DNA of 64,000 nt from a virus, in IMG/VR virus record IMGVR_UViG_3300042396_000723, positions 32,001-96,000 of that record; one strand, given 5' to 3'. Shown piece after piece: positions 26,223-50,370 of this stretch (the stretch's first letter is position 1; every line of letters starts with the position of its first letter). The notes beneath the pieces were generated by a model. That model did not search any database, was not told where the DNA came from, and saw only the letters and a program-made list of their open reading frames with translations. Both the position numbers and the translations under genes were made by a program.

Positions 26223-26233
26223 GGAAAAATCAA

Positions 26234-26721: not shown

Positions 26722-26725
26722 AATC

Positions 26726-26758
26726 AACCCTCTAAATATTTAGAGGGTTCTTTTTTTG
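26726..26758. terminator. strong intrinsic terminator (bidirectional candidate)
   Basis: Perfect 24-nt palindrome AACCCTCTAAATATTTAGAGGGTT followed by CTTTTTTTG; between convergent genes. Confidence 0.7.
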
Positions 26759-26759
26759 A

Positions 26760-27449
26760 TTATCTGATAATCGTTAACGTCGTAGTCTCTGGCAACTTCA
26801 CCCACGGATAAACGATCCGCCAAACATCGTGACTATAAATATTTTTCGTCATGTACCGGGCGTCGGGAACTTGTTTAATCTCTATCCCCATCTTAATACT
26901 CATCGCTTTGAGAGGTCGCCAACTGAAGTTAGACTCATGAACTTTATTGAACTTGGCAACCCTGATGATTGACGAATAATCAAAAAGTTCATCCAAAGCC
27001 TCGGACAGTTGATTGTTTTCTTCCTCAAGCAGTGCTTTCTCGGCCTCTAACTTTTCTACCTCTAACGCCAATCGTCCAGCCTCTAGCAAAGCCTGAGCAT
27101 AGGTTTGTGGTAACGCAAGCGGGGTCTGAACGTGGTTATTCTTAGCAAGGGAGAAAGCCTCAACTAACCGTTCTTTGCAATCCAAAACCTGATCACTGTT
27201 TCGGGAAAACGTCATCAAAAGTGTTGCTTGTGCTTCATTCAAGAAACAGTAAGAGACTTCGTAAGCCCCACCCTGCGGGCGTCTCACCACGTCCGTTTTA
27301 AACGCGACTGGTGTTTTTCGTTCTAATCGGTCTAAATACTTTGTGATTGTTTGCAGTAAGTTCTTATGTTGAATCCCCAGTTCATCAGCAATCAATCGGG
27401 AATCGACAACTAAGGTGTCATTCTGTGTGGTAATGTCAAGAATAGCCAT
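26760..27449 (-). CDS. phage antirepressor-like protein (Rha-like N-terminus, KilAC-like C-terminus)
   Basis: 229 aa; N-terminus ITTQNDTLVVDSRLIADELGIQHKNLLQTI resembles Rha regulators; C-terminal half is a paralogue of the C-terminus of ORF 49642-50370. Confidence 0.6.
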   Translation of the reverse strand: MAILDITTQNDTLVVDSRLIADELGIQHKNLLQTITKYLDRLERKTPVAFKTDVVRRPQGGAYEVSYCFLNEAQATLLMTFSRNSDQVLDCKERLVEAFSLAKNNHVQTPLALPQTYAQALLEAGRLALEVEKLEAEKALLEEENNQLSEALDELFDYSSIIRVAKFNKVHESNFSWRPLKAMSIKMGIEIKQVPDARYMTKNIYSHDVWRIVYPWVKLPETTTLTIIR

Positions 27450-27604
27450 TGTTTACTCCGTATAAGTAAGTTGTGGTTAGACCCGTTCAAAAGCCAAAAA
27501 CTTTTGGCGGGTTGCCTATTTATATTATAATACAAACCCAATATCTTCACCAATAAAAATAACCCAACAATTAATAAATCATCGGGTGTGTTGTCCAATT
27601 TTAA

Positions 27605-28036
27605 TCAGTGTGCATTATTATTATAGCACCCTATTTCATCATCAACCATTGCTGAAACCAAAGGTTTTCTTTCTGGAAATAAATCTTTAATTGACCTGAC
27701 AGCATCAATATAAGACTTACCGAGGTATGTTCCATTCTCTCCAAAACTAACAGGGATATCAGAAACCGCCCACCACCCAGACCGACCTCTGAACTCAATA
27801 TACCAATAACCATAGTTGGTATTTTCTCCCGTTGTTTGGGATATTAAATTATTTAATTGTTCTGTTTTTGTTTGCATTCGCAACATCATTTCCTCTCTAA
27901 TTTTCCCTTGAAGTTCCCAGATATCTTTTTTTATAATGTCGTTCATCTGATTAGCTAATCTCATCTTGTACCCTGAATCCGTAGTAGCATTCTCGTACTC
28001 GGTTATTAAATTTTTTAATGCTTCCGTATCCATCAT
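27605..28036 (-). CDS. hypothetical protein
   Basis: 143 aa; AT-rich. Confidence 0.35.
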   Translation of the reverse strand: MMDTEALKNLITEYENATTDSGYKMRLANQMNDIIKKDIWELQGKIREEMMLRMQTKTEQLNNLISQTTGENTNYGYWYIEFRGRSGWWAVSDIPVSFGENGTYLGKSYIDAVRSIKDLFPERKPLVSAMVDDEIGCYNNNAH

Positions 28037-28272
28037 CCCACCTCAAAAGTAACAACATTCCACTTCAATTCTACCTGTAATTCTACCTGTAATTTTACCT
28101 GTTCTGATATCCATTTATCCATACACGAATTAATAAAAACAGGATAATCATTACGAGATTGTAGCCATTGTTTAGGATACTTAACTTTCAATTCCTTAAT
28201 CGTGAAAGTTTCCTCGGATACGGTAACTTCACGATCCAATGCAATCAGTTTAATTTTAGTTGAATTATTCAT
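28033..28272 (-). CDS. hypothetical protein
   Basis: 79 aa; contains 12-bp tandem repeats. Confidence 0.3.
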   Translation of the reverse strand: MNNSTKIKLIALDREVTVSEETFTIKELKVKYPKQWLQSRNDYPVFINSCMDKWISEQVKLQVELQVELKWNVVTFEVG

Positions 28273-28344
28273 GATAAAAAGGGACTGGGTTGTGTTGGTG
28301 TTGCATTAAATACAATCTAATGCCCTCCCGTGCAAGAGATTGTC

Positions 28345-28791
28345 TCAGGTTTGATTGCCGTCGTTAGTGTTTGAATTACTTGCATTGGTAGATACCCCTT
28401 TTAGCTTCTTTATTATTGCAATAGCTTTTTGATGTTCTGAAGCTAAGTGTTGATATTTTTCTTGAATGTTTACTAATTGTTCAGAAAAATTAGAGTTAGT
28501 TTTCTCCTGTAGCGCGGCTATCTTTTCCCTGAGTTCGTTGTTTTCAACCTCAAGCCTGTTTAAATCATTCTCCCTATAATTAGCCTCCCTCTGAAGGCTT
28601 TTAATTTCACTTTGTAATTCAACTATAACCTTGATGTTTTTGGTATCAAAAATTCTATTGATAGCAATACCAATTACACTACTACCACCCAACAGAACGG
28701 TAATCAAACCAAATACTGATTGAATCGTTTGGTCTGTAGTAGCTGTTGTTGTATTTGATTGGAGAATAACATGAAAAAAAGACATCAACAT
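28345..28791 (-). CDS. membrane-anchored coiled-coil protein
   Basis: 148 aa; one TM segment then a heptad-like coiled coil. Confidence 0.4.
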   Translation of the reverse strand: MLMSFFHVILQSNTTTATTDQTIQSVFGLITVLLGGSSVIGIAINRIFDTKNIKVIVELQSEIKSLQREANYRENDLNRLEVENNELREKIAALQEKTNSNFSEQLVNIQEKYQHLASEHQKAIAIIKKLKGVSTNASNSNTNDGNQT

Positions 28792-28808
28792 TTTGATTAC
28801 GAGGGTAA

Positions 28809-29240
28809 TTAACTTTTGTAGGCATATTTAATTGATAACATAATCTCTGCAAGCATTGAAGAAAACACCCCGCAAGCTAAGGAAGATATACTGCCATTTT
28901 GCTTGATTCCTACAGACAAAAAGAAAACTACTATAAACAATACTGAAAGGATGTGGCAGATATTTAAAAGAATATAGCAAGCAGTCCAAACAGAGGAGCT
29001 AATTTCACTACTAAACTCTTTCTTGAACTTGTAGACGAAACACCAACAAATTATCCCGCCAATCCCCACCCCAAGGGTGATAGCGTTTAAAAAATCAATA
29101 CTCTCATTTATCCATCTAATAGATGTTTCTAATGGGGTAAAAATCATTCCAAACAATCCGACCAGAATCATCACCAGGAAATGATGATTAAAAAATAATG
29201 CCTGAACTATATATTTAATTCTAAAAACAGGGCGTGGCAT
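28809..29240 (-). CDS. multi-pass membrane protein
   Basis: About four hydrophobic segments; start moved to ATG 29240 (MPRPVF) to avoid overlap, track start 29339. Confidence 0.4.
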   Translation of the reverse strand: MPRPVFRIKYIVQALFFNHHFLVMILVGLFGMIFTPLETSIRWINESIDFLNAITLGVGIGGIICWCFVYKFKKEFSSEISSSVWTACYILLNICHILSVLFIVVFFLSVGIKQNGSISSLACGVFSSMLAEIMLSIKYAYKS

Positions 29241-29250
29241 ATTGCAATAT

Positions 29251-29610
29251 TTACCCCCTCTTTCTAAAATCGTAAGACTCACCCTCTTTTTTTCGCTCTT
29301 TGAGTTTTTTGCTACGTTCATAGTGATGCCCCAATACAAGGAAAAGCGATAAAAAACTTATAATAATTTGAATTATTAAAGTTGATATTTTCATATTATC
29401 AAACTTGTCATAACCTATCTTGTTAAAGCTGTCAAACAATAACATCAATCCGTTATTTATCAACAGAGTAGATGACAAGTATTGATTCAACTTTCGGTTA
29501 TCAAATATCAAGGAAAATCCATTAATAATAGAAATCAGTCCGGCAAAGAAAAGCAAGAAGGCATAACCGGACTGGTTGAAAGGGAGCGAAAAAATTGATA
29601 TTGATATCAT
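29251..29610 (-). CDS. multi-pass membrane protein
   Basis: 119 aa; three hydrophobic segments, basic C-terminus. Confidence 0.4.
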   Translation of the reverse strand: MISISIFSLPFNQSGYAFLLFFAGLISIINGFSLIFDNRKLNQYLSSTLLINNGLMLLFDSFNKIGYDKFDNMKISTLIIQIIISFLSLFLVLGHHYERSKKLKERKKEGESYDFRKRG

Positions 29611-29930
29611 TCTATTGGTGTTAATGGGTTGTTTTTTGACGCTTCAATTGCTGCTTTTCTGGTGGCTATTATTCCCATTGCCTCTGTAACCAGTGCAATT
29701 TTTATCCACTCCATCTTTTCGGAAAATCCTGGATATTTAGTCTCTAATTCATTGGGTGTTCCCAAATTCAAAATACCTTCACCTGGACTTGTCCCCAAAA
29801 CTTCTCCAGTCTCAAGATTGACAATCGAATATTGGTGGCACAGTTCAATTACAACATCCAATAAAATCCCACTCACAGGAATCTGTTGGCTTTGTAATAC
29901 AAAAAAATGGTCTTTTTTCTCAATAGTCAT
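29607..29930 (-). CDS. hypothetical protein
   Basis: 107 aa; starts immediately after the tail-fibre gene. Confidence 0.35.
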   Translation of the reverse strand: MTIEKKDHFFVLQSQQIPVSGILLDVVIELCHQYSIVNLETGEVLGTSPGEGILNLGTPNELETKYPGFSEKMEWIKIALVTEAMGIIATRKAAIEASKNNPLTPIE

Positions 29931-29934
29931 GATT

Positions 29935-32058
29935 TTATGCCGTGTAAATTATTGTTATTTTAACTGGTTTTGATAAAATATTTTCGCTATTTGTTGGATG
30001 ATTTATTATTTGTATGTCCGCCACTGACACGGACACGGAAAAATGAAGACCAACAAACTGTGTATCATATCCAGACAATACAAACGCGTTTGCGCTGAAT
30101 TCCACTAATACTGTGACGGATACAATTTTTGAAACCGTAACTCCATGAGCTATTAATGCAACCCCCCCTTCAGTTGCAGCCGTAGTCCCCGTCAAAACTT
30201 TAATCTTAATCCCTGGATGATTAGCGTCCCCACCTAAAGAACTGAAACCACCAACATATTGATTTCCTCCAATCCCCTGTCCCCCAGGAATTACACTAGC
30301 TCCCGTGGTGGGAGATGTTGAAGGTGTTGTGGAATTAGTTGATATCACACCTCTTAGGTAGGTATTGGTGATACTTGAATCACCAATTGTTACGGTGTTT
30401 GAGCCGTTACCGGTGGCGTTAAAACAAAATACGTTTTCGTTGGTTGCGTTCTGGGTTCCTTTTGTATTTGCGCCAAAAAAACAAGAGTTATTTGAGATAG
30501 TTAGACCTGTAACGCCGTCAGAAGTGAAGCGTCCTGCACCAACTCCAAAACCTGCCAAATTACTCCCTGTTATATTGCTGAAAAGCGCACCAACTCCAGA
30601 GGCAGTTAAATTATTCCCTGTAGTGTTATTTTCTAAAGCCCCAACGCCAAAAGCAGACGAATTATTCCCTGTAGTATTAGAACGAAGCGCATTAAGTCCA
30701 GCGGCAGTTAAACTACTCCCTGTAATATTGGACAAAAGCGCACTAACTCCAACTGCCGTTGAATAATTCCCTGTGGTGTTATTTTGTAAAGCCCCAGTTC
30801 CAAAACCTGCCAGGCCAATACCTGTGGTATTGGCCTGGAGCACACTAACTCCTGTTATTGTATTTGTGTCTAAACTCCCCCCTCCTCTCCCAATAGGAAT
30901 CAAATTATAAGAATTGGCACTAACAGTACCAGCAAAAATAGCACCCGTAACCCCTAAACTAGCGACCCTTAAAGCCCCTGTAGTTGTTGATGTTGATTGG
31001 GTTGATAGGGGAATATGAAATCTCGAACTATCAACAGAGAAATAAGTAGTCGCACCATCTCCCCAGGATTGAATCCCTGTCGATATATCTCTCTCCCACC
31101 ACGTTCTAGTGGTACTCAGGGGAATGTTAAAGGAAGCATCAACAGCTATCCCGTTATGAAAACTGGTTGTATTCCAGTCTACACCATTAGCTTTCCGACA
31201 AAGCCAAGTTCTTTCTGTTATTATGTTTCCTGATGCCCCTGTTTTTGAAGATAAAACTTGAAAATCTCCAGATGTACTACCGAGAGGAGACCCTTGATAT
31301 AGACTAACTCCTGCACCTAAAGAACCTATTATGTTTCCGTTTACTGCTAGATTCCCCGTGATAGTCCCACCCGCCAATGAAAGATAGGAATTAATATCAA
31401 TTGAATAAGTCCCATCCCCTGTTTTCTTTAGGAATCCTGGGGTGTCGGATAGCGATTGAATAGCAATTAATTCGTTGCCGATACTGTTAGTTGAAACCGC
31501 AGTTACTTGACCCTTAGCATTGACAGTAATAGCAGGAATTGAACTAGCACTACCGAAAGAACCAGCATTACTATTGACCGTTGCCAGTGTTATCGCACTT
31601 GTAACATTGGCTGAACCATCAAAAGATACTGAATAACTAGCATCCCCCGTTGTTGTAATTGTCCGTGGCGTGGTTAGTTTTAAAGCCTCTCCCGCAGTAG
31701 CAGAACTCGATATCTCAACATAAACAGAACCCGACCATCGGTAAACTTTATTAGTCGTTTCATCAACGTAAATCTTTCCAGTTTCACCCGTACCTGGGAA
31801 CCCGGCAAGGTTTGTATAACTCAGGACATCATCAACATAAGACGGTAAAAGCCCAGATGAAATTGTGCCAGACGCGGCGTTTAAACTTGTTAAAACTTCG
31901 TTACCAGTAGACGCGATCGCACCAACATCAGACGCGGTTAAACTAATCTGAGCTTTAGGAACCTTGGTATTTGAATCCAAGGTAGCCACACCATTAGCCA
32001 TTGCTTTCTCTAATTGCAAAACAATCAAAGAATAATCAATATCCGAAAACATTCCCAT
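29935..32058 (-). CDS. tail fibre protein
   Basis: 707 aa; GKIYVDETTNKVYRWSGSVYV and SIPAITVNAKGQVTAVS phage-fibre repeat motifs; many NTTG/NITG Gly-rich repeats. Confidence 0.8.
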   Translation of the reverse strand: MGMFSDIDYSLIVLQLEKAMANGVATLDSNTKVPKAQISLTASDVGAIASTGNEVLTSLNAASGTISSGLLPSYVDDVLSYTNLAGFPGTGETGKIYVDETTNKVYRWSGSVYVEISSSATAGEALKLTTPRTITTTGDASYSVSFDGSANVTSAITLATVNSNAGSFGSASSIPAITVNAKGQVTAVSTNSIGNELIAIQSLSDTPGFLKKTGDGTYSIDINSYLSLAGGTITGNLAVNGNIIGSLGAGVSLYQGSPLGSTSGDFQVLSSKTGASGNIITERTWLCRKANGVDWNTTSFHNGIAVDASFNIPLSTTRTWWERDISTGIQSWGDGATTYFSVDSSRFHIPLSTQSTSTTTGALRVASLGVTGAIFAGTVSANSYNLIPIGRGGGSLDTNTITGVSVLQANTTGIGLAGFGTGALQNNTTGNYSTAVGVSALLSNITGSSLTAAGLNALRSNTTGNNSSAFGVGALENNTTGNNLTASGVGALFSNITGSNLAGFGVGAGRFTSDGVTGLTISNNSCFFGANTKGTQNATNENVFCFNATGNGSNTVTIGDSSITNTYLRGVISTNSTTPSTSPTTGASVIPGGQGIGGNQYVGGFSSLGGDANHPGIKIKVLTGTTAATEGGVALIAHGVTVSKIVSVTVLVEFSANAFVLSGYDTQFVGLHFSVSVSVADIQIINHPTNSENILSKPVKITIIYTA

Positions 32059-32059
32059 G

Positions 32060-32494
32060 TTAATATCCTCTTACTAATCGAACTGATTTACCACTAGGAA
32101 TTACCAACTCAATAGCGGGGTATAGAACATTATTAATGGCCTCAAAGTTTAGATTTTCACCGGATGAAAATGTTAATCCATTAATAGTTACATCCCCTAC
32201 GAGTACCTTTAAATAAATGAAATAACTACCAGTTGCAATTGTTGTATTTGTTGTTAGCAATCTACAATCTAACTCGGCGGTTATTGTTGGTAAAGAGACT
32301 GGGACTCTACCACTTGATAAAGATGGAAGTTTGGCGTTGATCGCACCAAGTGTTGCTTCCGCAGATCCCCCGTCGTTTGAGATAGCACGATAAATCTCCC
32401 AGTAGGGAAGTGTCTGTGCCGGGTTCTCCAGGGCTTCTATTTGCTCTTTAATTAAAGCAGCCGCCTCCGTTTGCTGTGTACTAATATCAGGCAT
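32060..32494 (-). CDS. tail-associated protein (putative)
   Basis: 144 aa immediately upstream of tail fibre. Confidence 0.35.
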   Translation of the reverse strand: MPDISTQQTEAAALIKEQIEALENPAQTLPYWEIYRAISNDGGSAEATLGAINAKLPSLSSGRVPVSLPTITAELDCRLLTTNTTIATGSYFIYLKVLVGDVTINGLTFSSGENLNFEAINNVLYPAIELVIPSGKSVRLVRGY

Positions 32495-32599
32495 CTTTCA
32501 AAAATAGAAGGATTTATAATTAATTTTAACCCCTCTTTTATTGATTGCATTTTTAATTTAAGAAAATTCACCCTAGGACTAAAAGCATAATTTTTAAAA

Positions 32600-34327
32600 T
32601 TATCCCAAGACTAAGGCATATTTTTTAGCCGAGTTTTCAATAAAACTCAAAATATCAGAATCCATCTCTAAAATCCCTTGGTGAGAAATGGCTGTCACAG
32701 TGTTTGTGTAGTAATATGCGACTGTGATCAAATAATTCCCACTAGCGAAGCCTGAAGCCCCATTGACGGCAGCTACAGAGTTAATTACAGGGCTGTACAA
32801 TCCCAGTTCCGAATCAGGAACAGTAGTTGCCTCTCCTCCTGATCCAGTTAAGACAATAGTTTGAGTTGCTTCGCCTAGCTGCACTGGAGTGCTAAACTTA
32901 TTTCCCCCTATCCAGATCCATATATCTGTTGCATTGAAATTCCCTTTTGAATTTCCTGCAATAACATCAAGATAGTCGGATCTGATATTTGTGGGATGCG
33001 TTAGTTTAATCTCTAATTGTTTTGAAGGGCTTAACGTTACACTCCCTGCCACAATTGCTTTTCCACAACCATTTAATGTCCCGACTTTAGCCCTCAATAC
33101 TTGACCTGTTCCTAACCCCGAAACTGCTAAACAAGTCCCATTCCCGTTAATGGCAACGATCTGATTGGCAGTGTTGGCAACTAAACCAAATACCCCACGC
33201 TCTCCTGCTCCAATAAATGATCGCCCATTGACAATTCCCGATCCCGATAAGGCGATCGCGCTTAAACCCGTATCAGGGACAATTCGACGTAGATCCAACC
33301 CCGCACTAATTAAATTGCCAATGATTGCAGCCACACCCGAATAATAGCCAACACGCTCCCCGATTGATAGACTGACTTCTATCTGAGCATTCTCGGCTAC
33401 CCTCCCCCCTAAACTTGCCACGTCAACCTGAATCTCCACAGCAACTAGATAGGCATATCCCGATAGCAAATCTTTTTCTAAAATTAATCCCGAATTGTTG
33501 TTGGTATAAGTAATTCTTTGATTAATTCCCGTCATCTCCCCACCTCCAGAGGCGGAGGTATCCAGAGATCCATCGGTCAAGTTGACGTATCCTAAAAATG
33601 TCAAATTGACCGCACCCGCACCAAAAAACAGATCAGTTAAGTCTGTATCCCCCCACGATATCCCTACTGATATGGATCTCCCCGCAAAATAGGGAGATGT
33701 CGTTTCGTTTCTTAGCCAAAATTTGACGGGCTCGGAATAACTTCTGTCAACTGCATAATCGGGACGGATAATAATTTCTTTTTGCTCATCTGTGAACTCA
33801 GAAAGCAACCTATCACAGCCGTTTACCGAACGAGTTGATGTAACTAAGGTTTGGAATTCTTGGGGATAAACCCTCAGCCACTGACTGTCTTGCCATTCTC
33901 TGATTTCTCCCCATTCGTCAACGTAAACCCGCATCCCGTCGATTTTATTAACAGGGATTTGAGAGGTATTCGCTACGCTTTTTTGGGTAACGAAGTATTC
34001 ATTTTTGTTAAGTGTTAGCGTCCCAGGTAAAGTATCTGAAGCTGAGTAAGTGGCTATAACATAAGCAGCTAAATAGGTATTTGTCGGGGAGAATGACAGC
34101 ACATAGGAGACTGGATCATACCCCTCACAGTTACAGTTAGGCACAATTACAGTCACACCTTGACCCGTTGTTAAATTGATGGCGGTTGGAGGGGAATACA
34201 GGTTAAATCCTTGGCGGTTCCGCATCTGCCAATACAACGAACCCGAAACCGGAGTTGTTAAACTTCCCGAAATTACTGAGACAACCGGAGCAGGAATTTG
34301 AGAGGGAATACCAGCGTAAGTCAGCAT
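32600..34327 (-). CDS. tail/baseplate structural protein (putative)
   Basis: 575 aa, Gly/Ser/Thr-rich, within structural block. Confidence 0.45.
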   Translation of the reverse strand: MLTYAGIPSQIPAPVVSVISGSLTTPVSGSLYWQMRNRQGFNLYSPPTAINLTTGQGVTVIVPNCNCEGYDPVSYVLSFSPTNTYLAAYVIATYSASDTLPGTLTLNKNEYFVTQKSVANTSQIPVNKIDGMRVYVDEWGEIREWQDSQWLRVYPQEFQTLVTSTRSVNGCDRLLSEFTDEQKEIIIRPDYAVDRSYSEPVKFWLRNETTSPYFAGRSISVGISWGDTDLTDLFFGAGAVNLTFLGYVNLTDGSLDTSASGGGEMTGINQRITYTNNNSGLILEKDLLSGYAYLVAVEIQVDVASLGGRVAENAQIEVSLSIGERVGYYSGVAAIIGNLISAGLDLRRIVPDTGLSAIALSGSGIVNGRSFIGAGERGVFGLVANTANQIVAINGNGTCLAVSGLGTGQVLRAKVGTLNGCGKAIVAGSVTLSPSKQLEIKLTHPTNIRSDYLDVIAGNSKGNFNATDIWIWIGGNKFSTPVQLGEATQTIVLTGSGGEATTVPDSELGLYSPVINSVAAVNGASGFASGNYLITVAYYYTNTVTAISHQGILEMDSDILSFIENSAKKYALVLG

Positions 34328-34353
34328 ATTTTATTGTTTACCCTTGTACTCAT

Positions 34354-34560
34354 TTATCCTTGAATTACTTGCCATTTACCATTGTGTTTAAAGGCGATCG
34401 CATTCCCTGTAACCACACCTTTAGCTACAAAACTTTTACCCATCCCAGAGAATACAGATCCACTATTCCCCAGAGGGTAAGCCTTGCCAATTAACACTGA
34501 TTTGTTAAGAGCGTTTAATCGACTTAAAGCCTGAGATGCGATTTGATTTACCGTCGCCAT
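34354..34560 (-). CDS. hypothetical small protein
   Basis: 68 aa. Confidence 0.3.
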   Translation of the reverse strand: MATVNQIASQALSRLNALNKSVLIGKAYPLGNSGSVFSGMGKSFVAKGVVTGNAIAFKHNGKWQVIQG

Positions 34561-34721
34561 GCTACTGATTCCCTTAACGTTCTGGTTCGGTTTGTTGCTC
34601 TTACAGTTTTCCCTCCATATCTGCCCGTGATGGAACTTCCTGAAATATTCCAGGTTGGCTGTCCACTGCTTAATATTCTTAAAAGTTTGGCTGCTAATTC
34701 TCTTTCTTTTGGGGACGACAT

Positions 34722-37088: not shown

Positions 37089-37092
37089 AATA

Positions 37093-37812: not shown

Positions 37813-37843
37813 AAAAAATTAATTTAACTACTAATATTATCCC

Positions 37844-38260: not shown

Positions 38261-38261
38261 T

Positions 38262-39866: not shown

Positions 39867-39958
39867 CTATCTTCCCCGTATAACCAATTGTGATTTTAAT
39901 TTTTATCCTTCCCTTTGAAGATGGTCTAGTTGCTCTATTTAGAACAATTCTTTCCATA

Positions 39959-41926: not shown

Positions 41927-41997
41927 TATTATAATTATAATTATGCCTTAAACTCAAAGATAATTCCGCAAAAAAATACCAATAACTTTATATAAAA

Positions 41998-43986
41998 ATG
42001 ACCGCCCAATCATCCGAGACAACAAAAAAAGAAACCACCACAGAGATTGTGAATCGTTATAGAGAAGACTCTCGCGTCATGATGCAAGCGTTAGCGGAGA
42101 GTGCCGACGCAAGTTCGATGCGAAATCCTCTCCCTGTAACGGGAAGAATCCAGCCTTTCTCTCAACAGCAAGTAGAAAACTGTTTAGCAGACGCGATCTT
42201 AAAACGAATTGCATGGAGCCTTCCATCTTCGTCAACCCAAAAGATGTGGCAGTTATCCTTGGGGGATGACTTCTCTAGTAAGACGGGTTCTAAATTAGTC
42301 CGAGATTATTATGCCTATCACGAAAGATTGAAAACCATATCACAATTTAGAAAAGCATTGCAGTTCTCTCGCTCTCATGGTGGGACAGTTATTATTCTCA
42401 AGATTAACGATGGAAGACATTATTCCGAACCTGTTGATGAAGGCAAGATTAAATCAATCTCTGGGTTAATCGTTCGTCACCGATGGCAAGTTGCTCCTTC
42501 GGTGAGAACGGCTGCTAGTATATTTGACCTTGATGACATTGAACATTATGAAATCCTAACAATTGACCAACAAATAAAACAAAAATTACTATTTAACGGA
42601 ACAAATTCCAAGCAGGATGATCGCCTGATTCATCGGTCAAGAATCCTCCGGTTTAATGGGGCATTAATGCCTGATGATTGGATGATTTCCTATAACAATG
42701 GATGGGGATTGAGTGTCTTTGACGAGGTTTGGAAATATTATAAAAACTATACGAATGGACTCAATGCAGTAGGCGAATTAATTAAAACCCAATCAGTTCT
42801 ACAGCATTCTTTTGAAGGACTGCGGGAACTGATGATGGCATCTGATGAAGAAAGTATCGCAGCTATTAAGCAAACCATGAAATCAATCCGACTAATGTTT
42901 GATCTATATGGCATGGTTCTCCACGACTCCCGTGAACAATTCAACTGGAATGCCCGCCCCGTCGTCGGGATGGATTCACTCGTGCAAGTACAGAAGGATG
43001 GGGTAACAGGAGCCTCTGGGATGCCTCACACGATAGTTTGGGGAGAAAGCCCTGGGGGTTTGGGGCGTGATGGCAAGGAGACCCAAATCAACTATGCTAA
43101 CTCGGTGGCAGAGTACCAAGGAGAGAGCTTAGATCCTAGCGCAGCTATTCTTGATCGTTATATCTTCTTGGCTAAAGACGGCCCCACAAAAGGCAAAATC
43201 CCCGACAACTACCAGAGGCAGTACCCTTCTATCTTGAGGATGACCATCGAGGATCTCCGCTCTGGACGCTCATCTGATATTCAGGCATTGGCTTCAGGTA
43301 TTCAAGCCGGATTCATCACGACAGATGAAGCTCGGACAGTGCCTTCTAACTCCGGTTGGTGGCCAGAGCTTAATCTTGATCAAAAAGCATGGGAAGAAGC
43401 CAGGAAAAAAGCAGAAGAACAAGCAAACTCCCTTGGTGGTTTTGATATGGGAGCATTAGGAGGAGAGGAAGTTGCCCCACCCACTGAAGAACCCGTCGAA
43501 GAAGAATCTATAACTCAAATGGACAGTGCTGTTTACACCCCAATAAAGCGGGTTCTTAATTGGCACGGGCTATCAATTGGGGTCACTCACGATAAAGGGG
43601 ATCTTCGCTATAACAAAACGATGAAGGTAGGGTATGGGCATATTAGACGCAGCTATGGACACGCGGAGGACGCAAAAGCAATCGACGTTTATATCAAAAA
43701 TCCAAACTCACCTAGTCTCTGGAAGGTTCGGCAACTCAACACAACAACAGGGGAGATTGACGAAACAAAGTATTTCTTGGGTTTTGATTCCCCCAAAGAA
43801 GTGCGCGATTGCTATTACTATCATGCCGGATTAGATCGTTTTGGAGGAGTGGAGAAGTGCGATCCTACGGAATTAAACCAATATCGCCAAGATGCAGAAG
43901 AATTGGAGGGAGTTAATGAAGTTTATCAAAATAAGATATTAACAGATGTAGCAAATAGAATCAATCAACAAACTCAATTAGATTAA
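41998..43986 (+). CDS. portal protein candidate
   Basis: 662 aa; first gene of head block, divergent from terminase block; assignment by size and position. Confidence 0.45.
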   Translation: MTAQSSETTKKETTTEIVNRYREDSRVMMQALAESADASSMRNPLPVTGRIQPFSQQQVENCLADAILKRIAWSLPSSSTQKMWQLSLGDDFSSKTGSKLVRDYYAYHERLKTISQFRKALQFSRSHGGTVIILKINDGRHYSEPVDEGKIKSISGLIVRHRWQVAPSVRTAASIFDLDDIEHYEILTIDQQIKQKLLFNGTNSKQDDRLIHRSRILRFNGALMPDDWMISYNNGWGLSVFDEVWKYYKNYTNGLNAVGELIKTQSVLQHSFEGLRELMMASDEESIAAIKQTMKSIRLMFDLYGMVLHDSREQFNWNARPVVGMDSLVQVQKDGVTGASGMPHTIVWGESPGGLGRDGKETQINYANSVAEYQGESLDPSAAILDRYIFLAKDGPTKGKIPDNYQRQYPSILRMTIEDLRSGRSSDIQALASGIQAGFITTDEARTVPSNSGWWPELNLDQKAWEEARKKAEEQANSLGGFDMGALGGEEVAPPTEEPVEEESITQMDSAVYTPIKRVLNWHGLSIGVTHDKGDLRYNKTMKVGYGHIRRSYGHAEDAKAIDVYIKNPNSPSLWKVRQLNTTTGEIDETKYFLGFDSPKEVRDCYYYHAGLDRFGGVEKCDPTELNQYRQDAEELEGVNEVYQNKILTDVANRINQQTQLD

Positions 43987-44232
43987 TTTTAAATTAATTG
44001 GTTTTTGAATGCAACTTAGTCAGCCCATTTTATTTCACTAGGGTTGGCTAAGTTGTCTAAACTGTTACATCAAATCTTTGTCAGTTCCTGATTTACGGGC
44101 TACGTAAATCTATGTATAGGTTAAGGTAGTTTGGCAACAATTGGCACTTCGGACAGTAAGGACACCCCAGACCCACTGCAACGGTCTGTCTCCCGCCTAT
44201 TCACCAAGAAATCAATACAATAAAAAAGGTGT

Positions 44233-44257
44233 GATTTTCTTATATAGAAATTATTTT
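44233..44257 (+). promoter_or_regulatory. conserved 25-mer (late promoter candidate), copy 1
   Basis: GATTTTCTTATATAGAAATTATTTT, identical to 51250-51274; 74 nt upstream of ATG 44331. Confidence 0.4.
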
Positions 44258-44330
44258 ATAAAGTCCCGTTGATCTATAAGAATTTAACCTTAAAATTATA
44301 GTAATAACTTCTGATCAGAAGGGTTTTATC

Positions 44331-44723
44331 ATGCCAATTCCTGTTAGTTTTTTCAAGATTACAAGAGCCGGAAAGGATTACGCCTTCAAGCCCGAAGACA
44401 TCTCGTTTGGGGACGACGACACTCTTGAGGTTAAATTAAATCAAGGGGGAGATATAGCGGTCATCCCTCTTGTAAAAAAATCCGTGACATTAACAATTCA
44501 GGGTGCTGTTGACACTGATCTTGATACGTTTGAAACCGAGAGAACCCAAAATGTCCAAAACTTAATTGACAATCAGCCGGTTGGCGCAAACATGGCTTTT
44601 GCAAACTATATTATTTACAGTGCTTACTTGCGAAAAGTAACCCCCACTGCCCCAATTACCGTGTCAGGGAAGACCTTGTTTGACACAATTGAGTTAGAGT
44701 TTGCCTCTCGCGTTTACGTTTAA
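44331..44723 (+). CDS. hypothetical protein
   Basis: 130 aa. Confidence 0.4.
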   Translation: MPIPVSFFKITRAGKDYAFKPEDISFGDDDTLEVKLNQGGDIAVIPLVKKSVTLTIQGAVDTDLDTFETERTQNVQNLIDNQPVGANMAFANYIIYSAYLRKVTPTAPITVSGKTLFDTIELEFASRVYV

Positions 44724-44773
44724 ATTTATACTGCCTAAGCCAATCAAGGTTTAGGTAGTAGCCCCTAAAATCT

Positions 44774-45739
44774 ATGTATAAAAAGATGACACCAACAGAA
44801 ACTTCAGTAAAATTAGCGATTGCACAAGTCTTGTCAATGCCTTCTGTTTTTAACGCACCTCTTTACGTCTTGGATTTTAACATTGACGAAAAAGGGACGG
44901 TATCAGGAAGGTTTAGAGATGCTGCTAGACCCCGTGTATTTAGCTATGAGATTGCAGACGATGGAATAACCTTTAGTCCCTTTGTCCCTGGAAGAATGGA
45001 TAGCAGTGACTGGAAAGTAGAAGACTGGGAGAAGTTTTCAGATGGCTATTCGTTTAGGATTGACGCAGGGATGCAAAAACGAACCGACAAGCCAAAATGT
45101 AATCCGGCTGTTTCTTTTTCTTGTGGAAAGGCTTGTGTTAGTTTAAAAAAGAAATGCAAAACAGATCCTCAAGATCCGACTTCTGTAGCCAAGAAAGAAA
45201 AATTAAAAGCTGTTATTAAAGAGGTTACAGTTACCGACAAGACGAGCAAAATTAAAGTCAGTAAGGATAAATCTAGTAAGCCCAAAGCCAATAAATTGAT
45301 CAATGACCTAGAACCCTTAGAGCCATTAAACACCTCTCGGACACCCACTGAAACCGTGTTACCTGAGCTAAGTTCTAACAATGTTGTTAAGGGTCTTGGT
45401 GGTAAAGTGGGCAGAGGAAAATATTCAGGCGATGCGGGTAGGGATTTTGAAGATACTGGCAAGATGATGAACTACCCACTAAAAAGCGTTGTAGCCACAA
45501 AGGACATGAAAGGGAAGGAAAAAGAAGTGGCAGACGTAGCAAAAATGTTGAAAGAATCCGAGAGAAATTGGCTCCCTGTTTATGTCAAAGAAGTTAGACC
45601 TTACGAGTATGAAGTTGTCGGAAATCATTTGACCCATGCAGCAGCAATAAAAGCAGGGTTTGAGAGGATTTGGACTATTCCGGTTGATTCAGATCCGGCT
45701 ACTCTCAAACAGATTCAAATGTTAACAAACGGTAATTAA
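44774..45739 (+). CDS. polymorphic effector family member A (shared N-domain, Cys knuckle, ParB-like C-terminus)
   Basis: 321 aa; N-terminal VKLAIAQVLSMPSVFNAPLYVLDF...GRFRDAARPRVFSY; KPKCNPAVSFSCGKACVSLKKKCKTDP; C-terminal YEYEVVGNHLTHAAAIKAGFERIWTIPV resembles the ParB fold. Confidence 0.5.
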   Translation: MYKKMTPTETSVKLAIAQVLSMPSVFNAPLYVLDFNIDEKGTVSGRFRDAARPRVFSYEIADDGITFSPFVPGRMDSSDWKVEDWEKFSDGYSFRIDAGMQKRTDKPKCNPAVSFSCGKACVSLKKKCKTDPQDPTSVAKKEKLKAVIKEVTVTDKTSKIKVSKDKSSKPKANKLINDLEPLEPLNTSRTPTETVLPELSSNNVVKGLGGKVGRGKYSGDAGRDFEDTGKMMNYPLKSVVATKDMKGKEKEVADVAKMLKESERNWLPVYVKEVRPYEYEVVGNHLTHAAAIKAGFERIWTIPVDSDPATLKQIQMLTNGN

Positions 45740-45780
45740 TTCCTGTGTTTATTTTACAATCTTATAAATTAAGATTTGAT

Positions 45781-45858
45781 GCTCCGCCAACAGAAATCCA
45801 GGCGAAATTAGCGATCGCCAAAGTACATCTCAATATTGGTAGAAGTGAACTTAATTAA
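45781..45858 (+). pseudogene. remnant of family N-terminal domain
   Basis: Translates APPTEIQAKLAIAKV... then stop; resembles N-termini of family members (PTEAQMKLxIAQ) but no in-frame start. Confidence 0.3.
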
Positions 45859-45907
45859 GCAAAAACAAAGTACAATAGACTCATCGCATTAAAAAGGAAA
45901 ATCAATC

Positions 45908-46132
45908 ATGAAAGCTAAAAAAACTGCTGTTGAAGGACAGAAGAAAATTAAAACCGTTCCCCCTGCTGTTGTAGATGAAGATGAGGATGTTTTAGGGGAA
46001 GGGGAGACATTGCAGGAATTTGACAAGAGAATGGAGAAAAAATATCCGAAAAGAAGTTATGACGATTTGACAGAAGAAGAAAAACGCGAACGTGCCAAAC
46101 GTTTTGTAGCTCAAGGGCCGGAAGACTGGTAA
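45908..46132 (+). CDS. small acidic protein
   Basis: 74 aa between family members A and B. Confidence 0.35.
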   Translation: MKAKKTAVEGQKKIKTVPPAVVDEDEDVLGEGETLQEFDKRMEKKYPKRSYDDLTEEEKRERAKRFVAQGPEDW

Positions 46133-46181
46133 ACTCCCCAGCCCGCACCCGTACAAAAAAATTTAGTTTATCTCAAAAACA

Positions 46182-49100
46182 ATGGTCACAACCTTAAACC
46201 GTCAAAATCCCCGTCGCCTTGATGCTGCTCCTACGGAAGTGCAGATGAAACTTGGTATTTCTCAAGTTTTGTCGATGCCATTTGCCTACAACTCTCCGGT
46301 TATCGTTCTGGATTTTGAAGTAGGCAATAAAAACATCATCAAGGGACGGTTTAAGGATGCCATTAGATCCCGTGTTTTTGAGTTTGAGATTGGGGATTCT
46401 ATCACGTTCAAGCCGTTCACCTGGAGGCGAACGGATAGCGACGTTGACCCGATGGCATGGGAAGACTTCTCTAAAGGGTATTGCTACCGATTCGATGCAG
46501 TCAAGACCGTCAGAAAGGAAAAACCTAAGTGTGGCAATACTTCTTATAACTGCGGTAAAGCCTGCATTGGCTTAAACAAGAATTGCAAATCAGATCCCCC
46601 CGATAAACCGTCCCAGGAGAAAGTTGATAAACTCAGAGCCGCGGCAGGGGAGTTTAAAGCTGTTCAGGGCGATCCAACCAAGAAGCAAGAGGATAATAAG
46701 TTAACGCCAAAACCACAGGAAGTTAAGGAAGTCGCGCCCACCCCCTCTCCCGATAAAGCAGAAGTCCCTGTCACCGACCTTGCTAAACAGCCACCTGTTG
46801 CCTTAAAAATTGGTAAAAAATCAGTCAACCTAAAAGACGACCTTGATTCCTACAAAGATTTAAGAATAACCGCCGATCCCGTTTTAGGTTGGCAAGTTAT
46901 CAATAAGAATGGGAACGTACTGAGAGAACCGCCCAAGGGCAACACGGCTCCAAGTCATAGATTCAAGAAAAGAGAGCAGGCTGAAAAGTTTGCTAACGAT
47001 GTGATGACACGGGTTGAGAAGTTGCAGAAGGCTCAACCAAAACCGGATGCTGATGTAAGTGACTCTGATAAAAGGTCATTTGAAAGTCTTTACACCACAA
47101 AATTATCATCCGCCCAACAGTTGCTTAACTTAGAAAAAAACGCAAAAATAGCGCGAATATCTCCCAGTGAAGATCAAAAAAATTATGACAAAAAACAACC
47201 CGACCTCAATATTGATTCGGGGCCAGGAATAATGGAAGGTTGGAGGACTGCGAAACCAGACGGATCTGTCCAGGGAATCCCTTGGTCTGTCAAGGCGGAG
47301 GGTCAAGAAAAGTCACGGGCTATCGTGGGTGCTAGATTAACGGATCATCCAGCCAGCCCTAATTTAAAAAGACTCAGGTTATACGACGCAGACGGACGTA
47401 ATGAGACAATTGACTTCAAAAAGGGTGATAGAAACGCATCTCTTAGGGCTAGAAGACTTGTTAGAGAAATCGCACAAGGAAAGTCTCAAGAGATGGAATC
47501 TGGCGACATAAAAGCGTTGATTGAGGGAGGTAAAGAGGGTTTAGCTAAAAGAAAAGTGGAAAAGGCAAGATTAGCTGCTGAAGACAAGCAATTTAAAGCA
47601 GCCTTAGATGATTATTTAAAATCAAAAAACCTAACAAGAGAAAGCATTAAAGGTTTGACCGATATCGGAATGGACGATCTTATCGAAAAAGTTGAGAAAT
47701 ACCAGAAATCACGATCTCAAACCCCCAATTCAGCAGGGGATAAGGGTGCGGGGGGTAAAACGTTTGACCTAAATGATTTATGGCGACAAACCGCCGACGC
47801 TGCTTATTCTAAAAACAAAGATGGTGTCTCAAAAAATCTTGAGCAATGGAAGGAAGTTGTAAAAAAATTAGAGTCAGGAGAAGGGATCTCTAAAGACGTT
47901 AACTTAAACGAATACGAAAAGTTAATGGATAATTTAGAAAAAAAATTAGTCCTCGATCCCAAAGATCCGTCTAATGTTGAATTTAAAAAGATTACGGGAT
48001 CTATTTCTAAGATTCTTAGTAAAGCAGGCAGTCTCAACCCGTTAACACAAGAAGACCTAGAAAAAGCTCACCCTAACTTTAGACCAATCATGCAACGAAT
48101 TAATAAAACCGTTGCTAAGGATTATGAATTATTTGACAAAAAAGAGCGAGTTCAAAAAGAGTTAAATAGCCTAAAACAAGAAAAATCTTATAACGAGGCT
48201 GTGATATTAAATAATTCAAAACGATTCCGAGAAATAGGTATTAATAATAACGAGGTAGAAATTCAAAGACTTTCCAAGAAAAAACCGAGCGATTCAGTTG
48301 AGGTTAGAAATCCTGTCTCAAATTTACCAGAAAGGACTATTTCGGCATCCAAACGGATTAAGGAACTTCAAGATGAAATTGGGGAATTGAATAATAGTGA
48401 AAAAGCTAAAATAGAAGAAGACAGGGCTAGAAAAGAAATAGCCCGATTGCAAAGCCCAATGAAGGATGCAGAGAGTAGAATAAACGCCATTTTAGACGAG
48501 AAGAAAAAATTAAGGGAATCTCGCGGCGGATCTAGTTCACAATCAGAACCCAAGCAAACCCCAAATTCAGTAGGGGTTGATGGTGCGGGGGGTAAATCAG
48601 TTGATCAACAATATAAGGATATAATTGCTAAGTCGAAAGATCCAAAGGGAACAGAGGAAGTTTTATCGTCAGCATTAAGAGGTGGGTTTGGTGACTTTGA
48701 AAGAAAAAATTATAACGAATATTCAACCGCTATAAAATCTGGGACTGTTCCAAAAGGAATGGGGAACTATTATCAAAAACAAGTCGACAAATATAAACCC
48801 ATTATTGAGGCGGAAGATTTTATTAACGAAAGGAAGAAAAAAGCAATTAGTGGAGACTATGAAACAGAACAAGAAGCTGGGGTTTATGTTCTTAATAAAT
48901 TAAAGCAAAAAGGCTACAAAGAACACGAATATTATGACAGTCCAGACTATGAAAAAGATTATGGAAAATTGGTGGGGGTAATGAAATCTGTTAAACTTCC
49001 TCCGCCGTTGTCTGGTATCGTCCCCGGTAAAGAATTAAAACAGACATTAACTCCGGGTGACAAACTACTTGTTAAAGAGGATACTTATTCGTTAATGAGT

Positions 49101-49466
49101 AGTGGAAATACCCCTACTGGCTATCGAATAGTTGATGGTGGCGAAGTTTTAAAGGTTAATGTCAAGAATGTTAAAACCCGCGTTAGAGGCGAATACATGG
49201 GGAAACCCTACGAGAACGAGCCGTCTCTCGCTCTTGATAAAGTTACCCACGTCATCCGAGATGGTAAACGTTACAAGGTAGATGATTCTGATAGATCCCC
49301 CAATGACTTAAAGTCGGAATCCTCCAAATCCCAGAAAGCAGTAAAACAAAAGGCAGTAAAACAGAAAGCAATAAAAGTTCAAGGGGAGCGATCGCAAAAA
49401 CAAGAATCCCCTCTAATTCCGAAAGAGGAAATAGTTAAAGATGCTCCAATACTGATGTTAAGGTAA
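46182..49466 (+). CDS. polymorphic effector family member B (long repeat-containing C-terminus)
   Basis: 1094 aa; shared N-domain and KPKCGNTSYNCGKACIGLNKNCKSDP; internal repeats NSAGDKGAGGKTFD / NSVGVDGAGGKSVD; lysine-rich. Confidence 0.5.
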   Translation: MVTTLNRQNPRRLDAAPTEVQMKLGISQVLSMPFAYNSPVIVLDFEVGNKNIIKGRFKDAIRSRVFEFEIGDSITFKPFTWRRTDSDVDPMAWEDFSKGYCYRFDAVKTVRKEKPKCGNTSYNCGKACIGLNKNCKSDPPDKPSQEKVDKLRAAAGEFKAVQGDPTKKQEDNKLTPKPQEVKEVAPTPSPDKAEVPVTDLAKQPPVALKIGKKSVNLKDDLDSYKDLRITADPVLGWQVINKNGNVLREPPKGNTAPSHRFKKREQAEKFANDVMTRVEKLQKAQPKPDADVSDSDKRSFESLYTTKLSSAQQLLNLEKNAKIARISPSEDQKNYDKKQPDLNIDSGPGIMEGWRTAKPDGSVQGIPWSVKAEGQEKSRAIVGARLTDHPASPNLKRLRLYDADGRNETIDFKKGDRNASLRARRLVREIAQGKSQEMESGDIKALIEGGKEGLAKRKVEKARLAAEDKQFKAALDDYLKSKNLTRESIKGLTDIGMDDLIEKVEKYQKSRSQTPNSAGDKGAGGKTFDLNDLWRQTADAAYSKNKDGVSKNLEQWKEVVKKLESGEGISKDVNLNEYEKLMDNLEKKLVLDPKDPSNVEFKKITGSISKILSKAGSLNPLTQEDLEKAHPNFRPIMQRINKTVAKDYELFDKKERVQKELNSLKQEKSYNEAVILNNSKRFREIGINNNEVEIQRLSKKKPSDSVEVRNPVSNLPERTISASKRIKELQDEIGELNNSEKAKIEEDRARKEIARLQSPMKDAESRINAILDEKKKLRESRGGSSSQSEPKQTPNSVGVDGAGGKSVDQQYKDIIAKSKDPKGTEEVLSSALRGGFGDFERKNYNEYSTAIKSGTVPKGMGNYYQKQVDKYKPIIEAEDFINERKKKAISGDYETEQEAGVYVLNKLKQKGYKEHEYYDSPDYEKDYGKLVGVMKSVKLPPPLSGIVPGKELKQTLTPGDKLLVKEDTYSLMSSGNTPTGYRIVDGGEVLKVNVKNVKTRVRGEYMGKPYENEPSLALDKVTHVIRDGKRYKVDDSDRSPNDLKSESSKSQKAVKQKAVKQKAIKVQGERSQKQESPLIPKEEIVKDAPILMLR

Positions 49467-49641
49467 CAGATAGAGATGGAATTATTCTTGTGGAAGCCGA
49501 AGAAGTATAGAAAATTAACAATAAATTAGTGGTTTTGCTTCTGTTTTGCCCAAAATAAAACTGTTATAATTAATAATAACAAACGCCTCTCGCGGTGCGC
49601 TAACACCCAGAGGCAGTAGATCCTATCCAAGAGGAACCACA

Positions 49642-50370
49642 ATGACTAATTTATCATTATTACCTGACGATATTCGTTCTGAATTTTCCGTTAACGATCA
49701 AGGTCAGGCTTTTGCGAGTAGACGGGCGATCGCACGGTTGGCAGGCGTTTCTCATGTGTCCATCGGGAATCTATTGGATAAAATCGCTGTTAACCTAGAC
49801 CTCCCCGAAAGCATTGAAATCCTTGGAGGGCAGGACTTTGAGGGTGTTAACCTGATCCCTGATACCGTTGCCTCCCGGATTATTGAGTATTACGCTTTTG
49901 ATGCTAAACGTTATTGCACAGAACAAGCCAAGCGAGTTTATAAAGCATTCGGGGCTATCGGGTTTCGGTCGTGGGTACAAACTGAATTAGGTTGGCAATA
50001 TTCACAACCTAAGTTACCTCAGACTTATGCTGAGGCATTACTGGAGGCGGGACGGTTAGCGTTAGAAGTGGAGAAGTTGGAAGCCGAGAAAACATTGCTT
50101 GAGCAAGAGAATGGCGAACTCTCCAAAAATTTAGATGAGTTATTTGATTATTCCTCTATTGTTCGGATTGCCAAGTTTAACCAAATCTCAGAGAAAATCT
50201 TTAACTGGCGGTTACTCAAGGCATTGAGTCTTAAAATGGGGTTAGAAATTAAAAAAGTCCCGTGTCCCAGGTTTGAGACAAAAAGCCTATATTCTCACGA
50301 TGTCTGGCGTGTTGCTTATCCTGAAATGAAGCTACCAGAAACGACAACGCTAGTTATTAACAGAGGATAA
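49642..50370 (+). CDS. antirepressor-like protein with KilAC-like C-terminal domain
   Basis: 242 aa; C-terminus QTYAEALLEAGRLALEVEKLEAEK...YSHDVWRVAYP paralogous to 26760-27449. Confidence 0.55.
   Translation: MTNLSLLPDDIRSEFSVNDQGQAFASRRAIARLAGVSHVSIGNLLDKIAVNLDLPESIEILGGQDFEGVNLIPDTVASRIIEYYAFDAKRYCTEQAKRVYKAFGAIGFRSWVQTELGWQYSQPKLPQTYAEALLEAGRLALEVEKLEAEKTLLEQENGELSKNLDELFDYSSIVRIAKFNQISEKIFNWRLLKALSLKMGLEIKKVPCPRFETKSLYSHDVWRVAYPEMKLPETTTLVINRG

Follow-up and report, generated by a model that had tools for sequence, protein, structure and literature searches.

Anciently diverged paralogs in a relative of Planktothrix phage PaV-LD share a C-terminal module and differ in their DNA-binding heads

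The window analysed here, a 64,000-nucleotide stretch of viral DNA, carries two genes on opposite strands, ORF A and ORF B, which had been read from the sequence as paralogous KilAC-type antirepressors with unlike N-termini, one of them embedded in the head module. By genome comparison, the window is closely related to Planktothrix phage PaV-LD and collinear with it. The two reading frames were recovered exactly at the positions and on the strands proposed, and are organised as follows.

26760..27449, minus strand: ORF A, 229 aa, with a Rha N-domain, a leucine-zipper linker and a conserved small C-terminal domain (ORF list, Pfam, PHROG)
27150..27407, minus strand: Rha (PF09669) DNA-binding domain of ORF A, aa 15-100 (Pfam)
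26763..27113, minus strand: C-module of ORF A, aa 113-229 (BLASTP against ORF B, AF2 model, heptad analysis)
49642..50370, plus strand: ORF B, 242 aa, with an HTH-type N-domain, then a zipper and a small C-terminal domain as in ORF A (ORF list, PADLOC, AF2)
49642..49995, plus strand: ORF B N-domain, aa 1-118, a predicted beta-hairpin, HTH and helical bundle (comparison, AF2, PADLOC)
50014..50367, plus strand: C-module of ORF B, aa 125-242, orthologous to that of PaV-LD ORF064R (sequence comparison)

Pairwise BLASTP aligns residues 91-229 of ORF A with residues 92-241 of ORF B at 63% identity (E 2e-62), bearing out the collinear C-terminal domain of the sequence-only reading, and the motifs quoted for it (QTYAQALLEAGRLALEVEKLEAEK, YSHDVWR and KLPETTTL) are all present. 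The C-terminal ~117 residues of the two proteins are clearly homologous, with a similarity far beyond chance. Over the 117 shared codons counted from LPQTY, identity is 70% for nucleotides and 73% for amino acids; the earlier estimate of ~75% nucleotide identity was slightly high, but the similarity itself stands. At synonymous sites the two genes are saturated (pS 0.79, pN 0.16), and the split is therefore ancient, in agreement with the old duplication that had been supposed. Even the zipper cores, which are 96% identical in amino acids over the first 26 residues, are saturated synonymously. That the two genes duplicated recently or exchanged sequence by gene conversion was rejected, as pS lies between 0.76 and 0.81 in linker and globular part alike and the longest exact nucleotide match is 11. 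These values also led to rejection of the idea that the inverted copies serve to flip the 23 kb lying between them; PaV-LD, with its one copy, is moreover collinear. The C-module is under purifying selection (dN/dS 0.05 between ORF B and PaV-LD), and among the family representatives ORF A and ORF B fall into one clade with a single B-like protein.

The N-terminal parts of the two proteins, by contrast, have no significant similarity in BLASTP, as had been noticed. ORF A contains a Rha domain in Pfam (48.4 bits against a gathering cut-off of 29.9, E 1.4e-12; NCBIfam gives a sub-threshold Rha match only), and ORF B does not match this model. Its N-domain matches two PADLOC models, a CRISPR-linked HTH (PDLC01151, aa 15-147, E 1.6e-14) and the N-terminal part of BstA (aa 69-129, E 5e-10, profile positions 94-152 of 292), as well as PHROG 6287 BstA (E 6e-5). 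No Pfam model for this type of N-domain was found in ORF B or in nine relatives, and KilA-N (PF04383) matches neither ORF A nor ORF B. The exact ORF A protein is present in 148 blocks of the public assembly collection and the exact ORF B protein in 45, so that both recur across many environmental assemblies.

The ORF B locus is the locus of PaV-LD ORF064R, which lies in the head region after a large ORF061R-type gene and is annotated as "KilA-like protein" or "transcriptional regulator" (YP_004957337); ORF064R is not discussed in the PaV-LD papers found. The C-modules of ORF064R and ORF B are 97.5% identical in amino acids and 94% in nucleotides, whereas the head of ORF064R is KilA-N (PF04383, E 8e-19, 68 bits) and that of ORF B is of the HTH type. 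DNA homology between the two genes restarts six codons before LPQTY, which is the domain boundary. The head has therefore been swapped exactly at this boundary. KilA-N-type heads joined to the C-module also occupy the ORF B locus in other contigs, and contigs L060-L063 and L079 have at this locus N-termini closely resembling the KilA-N of ORF064R (sequence resemblance); across the locus, C-modules that follow KilA-N or BstA-N-like HTH heads are 91-97% identical. An antirepressor between a polymorphic effector and head genes had been taken as an unusual arrangement. As the ortholog ORF064R holds the same place in PaV-LD and is already annotated there, the head-module position of ORF B is conserved and not exceptional, and for the supposed effector adjoining ORF B the one match in PHROGs is to a minor-head-protein family.

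In the shared module, a heptad leucine zipper is predicted to precede a small domain of winged-helix-like fold. In the AF2 model of the ORF A C-module (pLDDT 87), a helix spanning residues 5-43 precedes a beta-alpha-alpha-beta-beta-alpha unit; the zipper corresponds to ~aa 117-156 and the globular part to ~aa 157-229 of the protein. The zipper is a single long helix in the models of both proteins (pLDDT 87 for ORF B), with Leu at module positions 15, 22, 29, 36 and 43 and V, K, N and L at 19, 26, 33 and 40. Length differences across the family amount to exactly 7 residues in the zipper, which also gives weak Pfam matches to bZIP and DivIC. The globular part is modelled with pLDDT 88-97 over most of residues 41-110 and ~50 at the C-terminal tail. 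Structurally it has weak neighbours, for the most part winged-helix or MerR-type HTH proteins, and a Foldseek search against the PDB returned nothing below E 0.9, with weak winged-helix proteins only. The fold assignment rests on AF2 and these weak matches because neither Pfam ANT nor a solved structure matches significantly.

The label "KilAC-type" was not upheld in the sense of the Pfam model, and of the profiles named for a domain search, Rha was found in ORF A and KilAC in neither protein. Pfam ANT (PF03374; gathering threshold 25.3 bits) has no match in ORF A or ORF B at E <= 1 and none among 121 family representatives at E <= 0.01, whereas the Rha+KilAC proteins used as positive controls, Budski gp63 and Saal gp49, match with 53.9 and 44.3 bits, respectively. 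A profile of the 121 C-modules aligned by hhalign with 25 actinophage ANT domains gives a probability of 78% (P 1.8e-5, 100 collinear columns), which is below the usual 90-95% level; 31 control comparisons (one reversed and 30 column-shuffled) score <= 14.8 with P >= 0.086. Compositional bias of the helical linker may supply part of the hhalign score. These profile comparisons suggest that the C-module is a remote relative of KilAC (ANT) that has no Pfam model of its own.

The wider family comprises 538 representatives at E <= 1e-3, largely from cyanophages or metagenomes, and a genome scan found only four loci, in Crocosphaera, Kamptonema (two loci) and a fragment binned to a Bacteroidota MAG. 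Six known phage heads occur among the 121 members scanned: Rha (36), AntA (19), Bro-N (19), KilA-N (13), P22_AR_N (2) and ORF6N (2). The C-module thus follows Bro-N, KilA-N, Rha, AntA or P22_AR_N heads in these members, as KilAC/ANT does, and is conserved much more strongly than the heads. The labels "KilAC" and "antirepressor" should be applied to the C-module with caution, as this concerns ~540 clusters without a Pfam model.

The two paralogs, which diverged long ago, are probably modular phage regulators of the Bro/Rha/KilA/Ant class, built in three parts and acting as a dimer. The first part is an interchangeable N-terminal head predicted to bind DNA, namely Rha in ORF A, a BstA-N-like HTH in ORF B and KilA-N in the PaV-LD ortholog. 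The second is a modelled helix of ~40 residues with a canonical leucine-zipper heptad and Asn at a core 'a' position, most likely forming a parallel dimer; the coiled coil could instead give hetero-oligomers or higher-order oligomers. The third is the highly conserved, predicted winged-helix-like C-terminal domain of ~70 residues. In the dimer, site choice on DNA would fall to the N-heads, while the constant C-module would engage a conserved partner, which may be DNA or a protein (a repressor or another host or phage factor), so that phage or host transcription might be modulated during infection. The sequence comparisons establish the paralogy, the domain architecture, the orthology with ORF064R and the head swap, whereas dimerisation, DNA binding and any regulatory or antirepressor activity are putative.

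Candidate signals around the genes may bear on their expression.

26726..26749, no strand assigned: terminator-like palindrome between convergent plus-strand genes and ORF A (consensus scan and sequence)
27524..27587, minus strand: hairpin, promoter-like motif and ribosome-binding site 5' of ORF A (consensus matches)

The palindrome is likely a bidirectional terminator. Upstream of ORF A, consensus matches place a terminator-like hairpin at 27562-27587, followed by TTGGTG-18 nt-TATAAT at 27524-27553 and a ribosome-binding site, GGAG, and these predicted signals suggest that ORF A is its own transcription unit. Around ORF B, the counts of promoter and terminator sites are not above shuffled expectation; statements on transcription units therefore remain inference.

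A narrower reading, which appears rather unlikely, is that ORF A, ORF B or both are true antirepressors that bind and inactivate a CI/XRE-type repressor, forcing or securing lytic growth in the manner of P22 Ant and P1 Ant1. Proposed targets are two genes in the window or the repressors of resident prophages.

14916..15401, minus strand: candidate repressor of the CI-like XRE type, oriented divergently to the replication module (phrog_3 transcriptional repressor, E 1.4e-6)
50841..51215, minus strand: XRE-like HTH gene, PaV-LD ORF070L (weak phrog_4583 and phrog_1728 matches, E ~9e-4)

The presence of these repressor candidates is consistent with the reading, although the first of them is a purely conjectural target of ORF A or ORF B. 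The second lies on the opposite strand within the head/tail operon, 470 bp downstream of ORF B, in a neighbourhood that is conserved in metagenome contigs, and is a possible partner regulator. PHROG 63 "anti-repressor Ant" matches both ORF A and ORF B (E 3e-16 and 8e-7; ORF A also matches PHROGs 518 and 4936), the architecture resembles that of annotated Rha+KilAC antirepressors of actinophages, and there is a precedent in CL131, as several antirepressor homologs are documented in apparently virulent cyanophages (PMC6293099). However, the name has been passed on because the DNA-binding heads are homologous, and not because a repressor-binding surface is, and the KilAC model itself is unmatched; calling proteins of this class "antirepressor" is a habit of annotation. 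Neither gene has an identified small neighbour of the Arc/Mnt type. The window carries no integrase at the syntenic site, which is empty, and a classical lysogeny switch on which an antirepressor would act is therefore not evident. A tRNA scan of the window found none.

Improbable, too, is a host-toxic 'kil'-type takeover, in which the conserved C-module would block division, transcription or another process of the host. The stronger conservation of the C-module than of the heads would fit a conserved host target, and the remote KilAC similarity recalls the staphylococcal phage Phi11 protein Gp07, whose C-terminal KilA domain inhibits the growth of E. coli and makes its cells filamentous (PMC5944126). 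That effect was obtained by heterologous over-expression, however, the KilAC relationship is distant, and the window itself bears in no way on toxicity. P1 KilA is a likewise cited precedent.

A bolder extension of the regulator model, equally doubtful, is that the C-module represents an unrecognised KilAC sister family centred on cyanophages, serving as a constant dimeric effector whose heads are exchanged in situ in a living phage population. As ORF A and ORF B hardly differ in their zipper cores, the paralogs could heterodimerise, thereby coupling two DNA specificities and co-regulating divergent morphogenesis operons; if so, the heterodimers would link the leftward (terminase side) and rightward (portal/head side) operons adjoining the two genes. 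Viewed more soberly, the case is routine phage domain shuffling that is already annotated in PaV-LD, and the pair by itself opens no new biological question; its value lies mostly in annotation.

Very improbable is a defence or exclusion function of BstA type, in which ORF B would bind the replicating DNA of competing phages and abort their infection: the match of ORF B falls within the region equivalent to the KilA-N-like domain of BstA from Salmonella prophage BTP1 (residues 32-147; PMC8585504), but only ~60 residues are covered, ORF A has no PADLOC match, BstA is a prophage gene of proteobacteria, and overall architecture and host range differ, ORF B having the zipper and C-module in place of the BstA C-terminal domain (the C-terminal half of the model is unmatched), which argues against membership of the BstA family.

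Among known systems, the preferred reading of a modular regulator finds its parallels in several phage lineages. P22 ant of the immI region lies inside the late (structural) region of the phage genome, so that an Ant/Bro-class regulator is placed there as ORF B is here; P22_AR_N heads of the P22 Ant type occur in the family as noted above, whereas the P22_AR_N and P22_AR_C models match neither ORF A nor ORF B in Pfam, and adjacent small repressors of the P22 kind were not identified by either gene. Gordonia phage Budski gp63 and Mycobacterium phage Saal gp49, the Rha+ANT "antirepressors", have a two-part layout like that of ORF A, with a Rha head, a helical linker starting with (L/V)PxT/S..EAL and an HTH-like C-domain. 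The Rha heads of ORF A and the actinophage proteins are 37-43% identical, but the actinophage C-domains pass the Pfam ANT threshold where those of ORF A and ORF B fail, and the two sets are related only at the profile-profile level. A hypothetical protein of Anabaena phage A-4L (A0A059PY39), uncharacterised and from another phage lineage (a podovirus of Anabaena), is homologous to ORF B along its full length (38% identity over 92% of the protein), shares its type of N-domain and its C-module, and is its best Foldseek match. PaV-LD carries KilA-N in place of the ORF B N-domain, has the additional ORF062R, ORF063L and ORF065R-068R around ORF064R, and, although collinear with the window, possesses a single copy of the gene pair, ORF A residing in a variable accessory island that is absent from PaV-LD. 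The comparison of these near-identical phages represents a clean natural replacement of an N-terminal DNA-binding domain at a domain boundary, which could be used for studying how the regulators of bloom-associated Planktothrix phages acquire new target specificity.

The sequence-only reading had proposed two paralogous KilAC-type antirepressor genes on opposite strands, one of them oddly placed in the head module. Its observation is confirmed and its interpretation partly supported. Both genes lie exactly at the coordinates and on the strands it gave:

26760-27449, minus strand, ORF A (229 aa)
49642-50370, plus strand, ORF B (242 aa)

In pairwise BLASTP, ORF A residues 91-229 align collinearly with ORF B residues 92-241 at 63% identity (E 2e-62), and the N-terminal ~100 residues lack significant similarity. 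From the LPQTY motif to the protein end, 117 codons are common to both genes (70% nucleotide and 73% amino acid identity); the by-eye figure of ~75% nucleotide identity was of the right order and slightly high. Synonymous differences are saturated in linker and globular part alike (pS 0.76-0.81) and pN is 0.16, which points to an ancient split, in line with the proposed old duplication, and to purifying selection on both copies. In a neighbor-joining tree of the common C-terminal part (the C-module), ORF A groups with ORF B and a single B-like protein (P0024) in one clade, which fits an old duplication inside this phage gene pool. The longest exact nucleotide match between the two genes is 11; with the synonymous saturation, this rules out recent gene conversion and also the inverted copies as a recombination substrate.

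The KilAC label finds no support in a direct test. In the domain search, Pfam ANT (PF03374) leaves ORF A and ORF B unmatched even at E <= 1 and matches none of 121 C-module family representatives at E <= 0.01, while two Rha-bearing actinophage 'antirepressors', as positive controls, are matched at 53.9 and 44.3 bits. Set against the profile of 25 actinophage ANT domains, the 121-sequence C-module profile nevertheless reaches a probability of 78% (P 1.8e-5, score 34.7, 100 collinear columns), and the controls (one reversed, 30 column-shuffled) never score above 14.8. This suggests treating the C-module as a separate, un-modelled family, a distant relative of KilAC that fills the same architectural slot. 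Recognition of a family without a Pfam model is a modest addition.

In the AF2 model of the C-module (pLDDT 87), a single helix of ~40 residues leads into a compact beta-alpha-alpha-beta-beta-alpha unit. This helix is a classic leucine zipper: heptad 'd' is Leu (positions 15, 22, 29, 36 and 43), heptad 'a' is V/K/N/L (positions 19, 26, 33 and 40; Asn33 is present in 54 of 119 family members), and lengths within the family differ by blocks of exactly seven residues. In the globular part, S48, I49, W65, L68, K69, Y93, Y102 and P103 are near-invariant; its weak structural neighbors come chiefly from the winged-helix or MerR-type HTH proteins, and nothing among PDB structures matches below E 0.9.

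An exhaustive HMM search recovers 538 representative clusters with the C-module (E <= 1e-3). Heads, i.e., the N-terminal DNA-binding-type domains, among the 121 members include Rha (36), AntA (19), Bro-N (19), KilA-N (13), P22_AR_N (2) and ORF6N (2), and a few partners are odd, e.g., the SF2 helicase (ResIII + Helicase_C) of P0144 (597 aa), which has the C-module at its end. The majority of members stem from viral or metagenomic contigs; full-length genome matches are few and all cyanobacterial (Crocosphaera, Kamptonema), and one Bacteroidota-binned MAG contig bears a short fragment.

ORF A carries the Rha head that had been suspected on one copy (PF09669, 48.4 bits, cut-off 29.9). The ORF B N-domain matches no family in Pfam or NCBIfam, and neither do nine relatives with this B-type domain. 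It is confidently modelled by AF2 (pLDDT 87) as a beta-hairpin, an HTH and a helical bundle, and residues 15-147 match PADLOC PDLC01151, a CRISPR-linked HTH protein (E 1.6e-14). In P0019 (210 aa), a B-type N-domain is followed by an unrelated C-terminal part that may hold a PD-(D/E)xK-like motif. At 3671-5379 of contig L073 (IMG/VR 3300044949_002089), a KilA-N + C-module gene is directly followed by a B-type-headed gene whose C-terminus is sub-threshold KilAC/ANT (Pfam ANT E 0.013), so that the B-type head pairs with both C-domain kinds; L069, L071, L072, L074, L076 and L103 have the same two-gene pair.

The window is closely related to Planktothrix phage PaV-LD (NC_016564) and, apart from a circular permutation, collinear with it; blocks of 92-99% nucleotide identity are broken up by replaced cassettes. 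ORF B occupies the position of PaV-LD ORF064R, annotated 'KilA-like protein' or 'transcriptional regulator'. Their C-modules are 97.5% identical in amino acids and 94% in nucleotides (dS 0.28, dN/dS 0.05); homology starts six codons ahead of LPQTY, the exact domain boundary, and the upstream parts are unrelated. The ORF064R head is KilA-N (E 8e-19), whereas that of ORF B is the HTH-type domain without a Pfam family. Since other PaV-LD-like contigs also have KilA-N at this locus, with C-modules 84-91% identical to that of ORF B, the window lineage has swapped its head in situ; catching an N-domain exchange at one locus is likewise a modest addition.

ORF B lies within the rightward portal-to-tail operon, between a large ORF061R-type gene and a Phage_tail_S gene, and its exact protein occurs in 45 blocks of the environmental assembly collection. 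The upstream gene (46182-49466, plus strand, 1094 aa) has a sole family match, PHROG 'minor head protein' (aa 41-209), and is a mosaic, mostly 93-97% identical in nucleotides to ORF061R, with a middle piece (47754-48250) closest to the paralog ORF065R (72%). PaV-LD ORF062R, ORF063L and ORF065R-068R are absent from this region of the window. The same operon contains a second regulator-like gene:

50841-51215, minus strand, XRE-like gene (124 aa), 470 bp from ORF B

It shares 26 nt with the 3' end of the Phage_tail_S gene (50447-50866) and is conserved in PaV-LD (ORF070L) and metagenome contigs. The position of ORF B, which had been called unusual, is conserved in PaV-LD, and a regulator in the late region is not exceptional; P22 ant is also located there.

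ORF A belongs to a variable island of 2.4 kb (25124-27512), where PaV-LD has 7.2 kb with toxin-antitoxin, GNAT, ABC, PIN and kinase/phosphatase genes, and has no ortholog in PaV-LD. The exact protein occurs in 148 blocks of the environmental collection, and an identical ORF A is present at the corresponding place in 11 IMG/VR contigs; more distant contigs have a Rha domain (55% identity) and C-module (70-78%) there. ORF A appears, from sequence, to be monocistronic, with these surroundings:

27562-27587, terminator-like hairpin upstream of ORF A (consensus match only)
27524-27553, TTGGTG-18-TATAAT promoter-like match ahead of ORF A (consensus only)
between that match and ORF A, GGAG site (consensus match only)
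26726-26749, palindromic terminator candidate past the ORF A end (consensus only)

Just before the last of these, a 62-aa ORF (26533-26721, plus strand) runs, in a different frame, across the end of gene 26234-26614. Its last ~33 residues resemble the zinc ribbon of IS1595/InsA-type transposases (sub-threshold Pfam matches, E 6e-5 and 8e-4), and the ORF could be what remains of an IS at the island edge.

ORF A and ORF B are probably dimeric, modular DNA-binding regulators, in which exchangeable heads would pick DNA sites and the constant zipper and C-domain would contact a conserved partner. Action as true antirepressors is considerably less likely. A candidate repressor exists:

14916-15401, minus strand, CI-like XRE repressor candidate (phrog_3, E 1.4e-6)

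It is divergent from the replication module, which starts at 15631, and the flanking region 12636-15218 is unmatched in PaV-LD. A tblastn search with the PaV-LD integrase (ORF018R) finds nothing in the window, where the syntenic site (21447-21737, versus 7865-11542 in PaV-LD) is empty and the neighbors of the integrase gene are missing too; the window phage may lack an integration function. Several antirepressor-like genes are reported from the apparently virulent cyanophage CL131 (PMC6293099). A kil-type host-toxic role is improbable; what suggests it is analogy with the KilA-C domain of Phi11 Gp07 (PMC5944126). ORF B residues 69-129 match the N-terminal part of the PADLOC BstA model (E 5e-10, profile 94-152 of 292), inside the KilA-N-like domain of BstA (PMC8585504), but the BstA C-domain is missing from ORF B, which makes a BstA-type defence role very unlikely. 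As modular regulators, ORF A and ORF B are an ordinary case of the well-known domain shuffling in phage Bro/Rha/KilA/Ant regulators.
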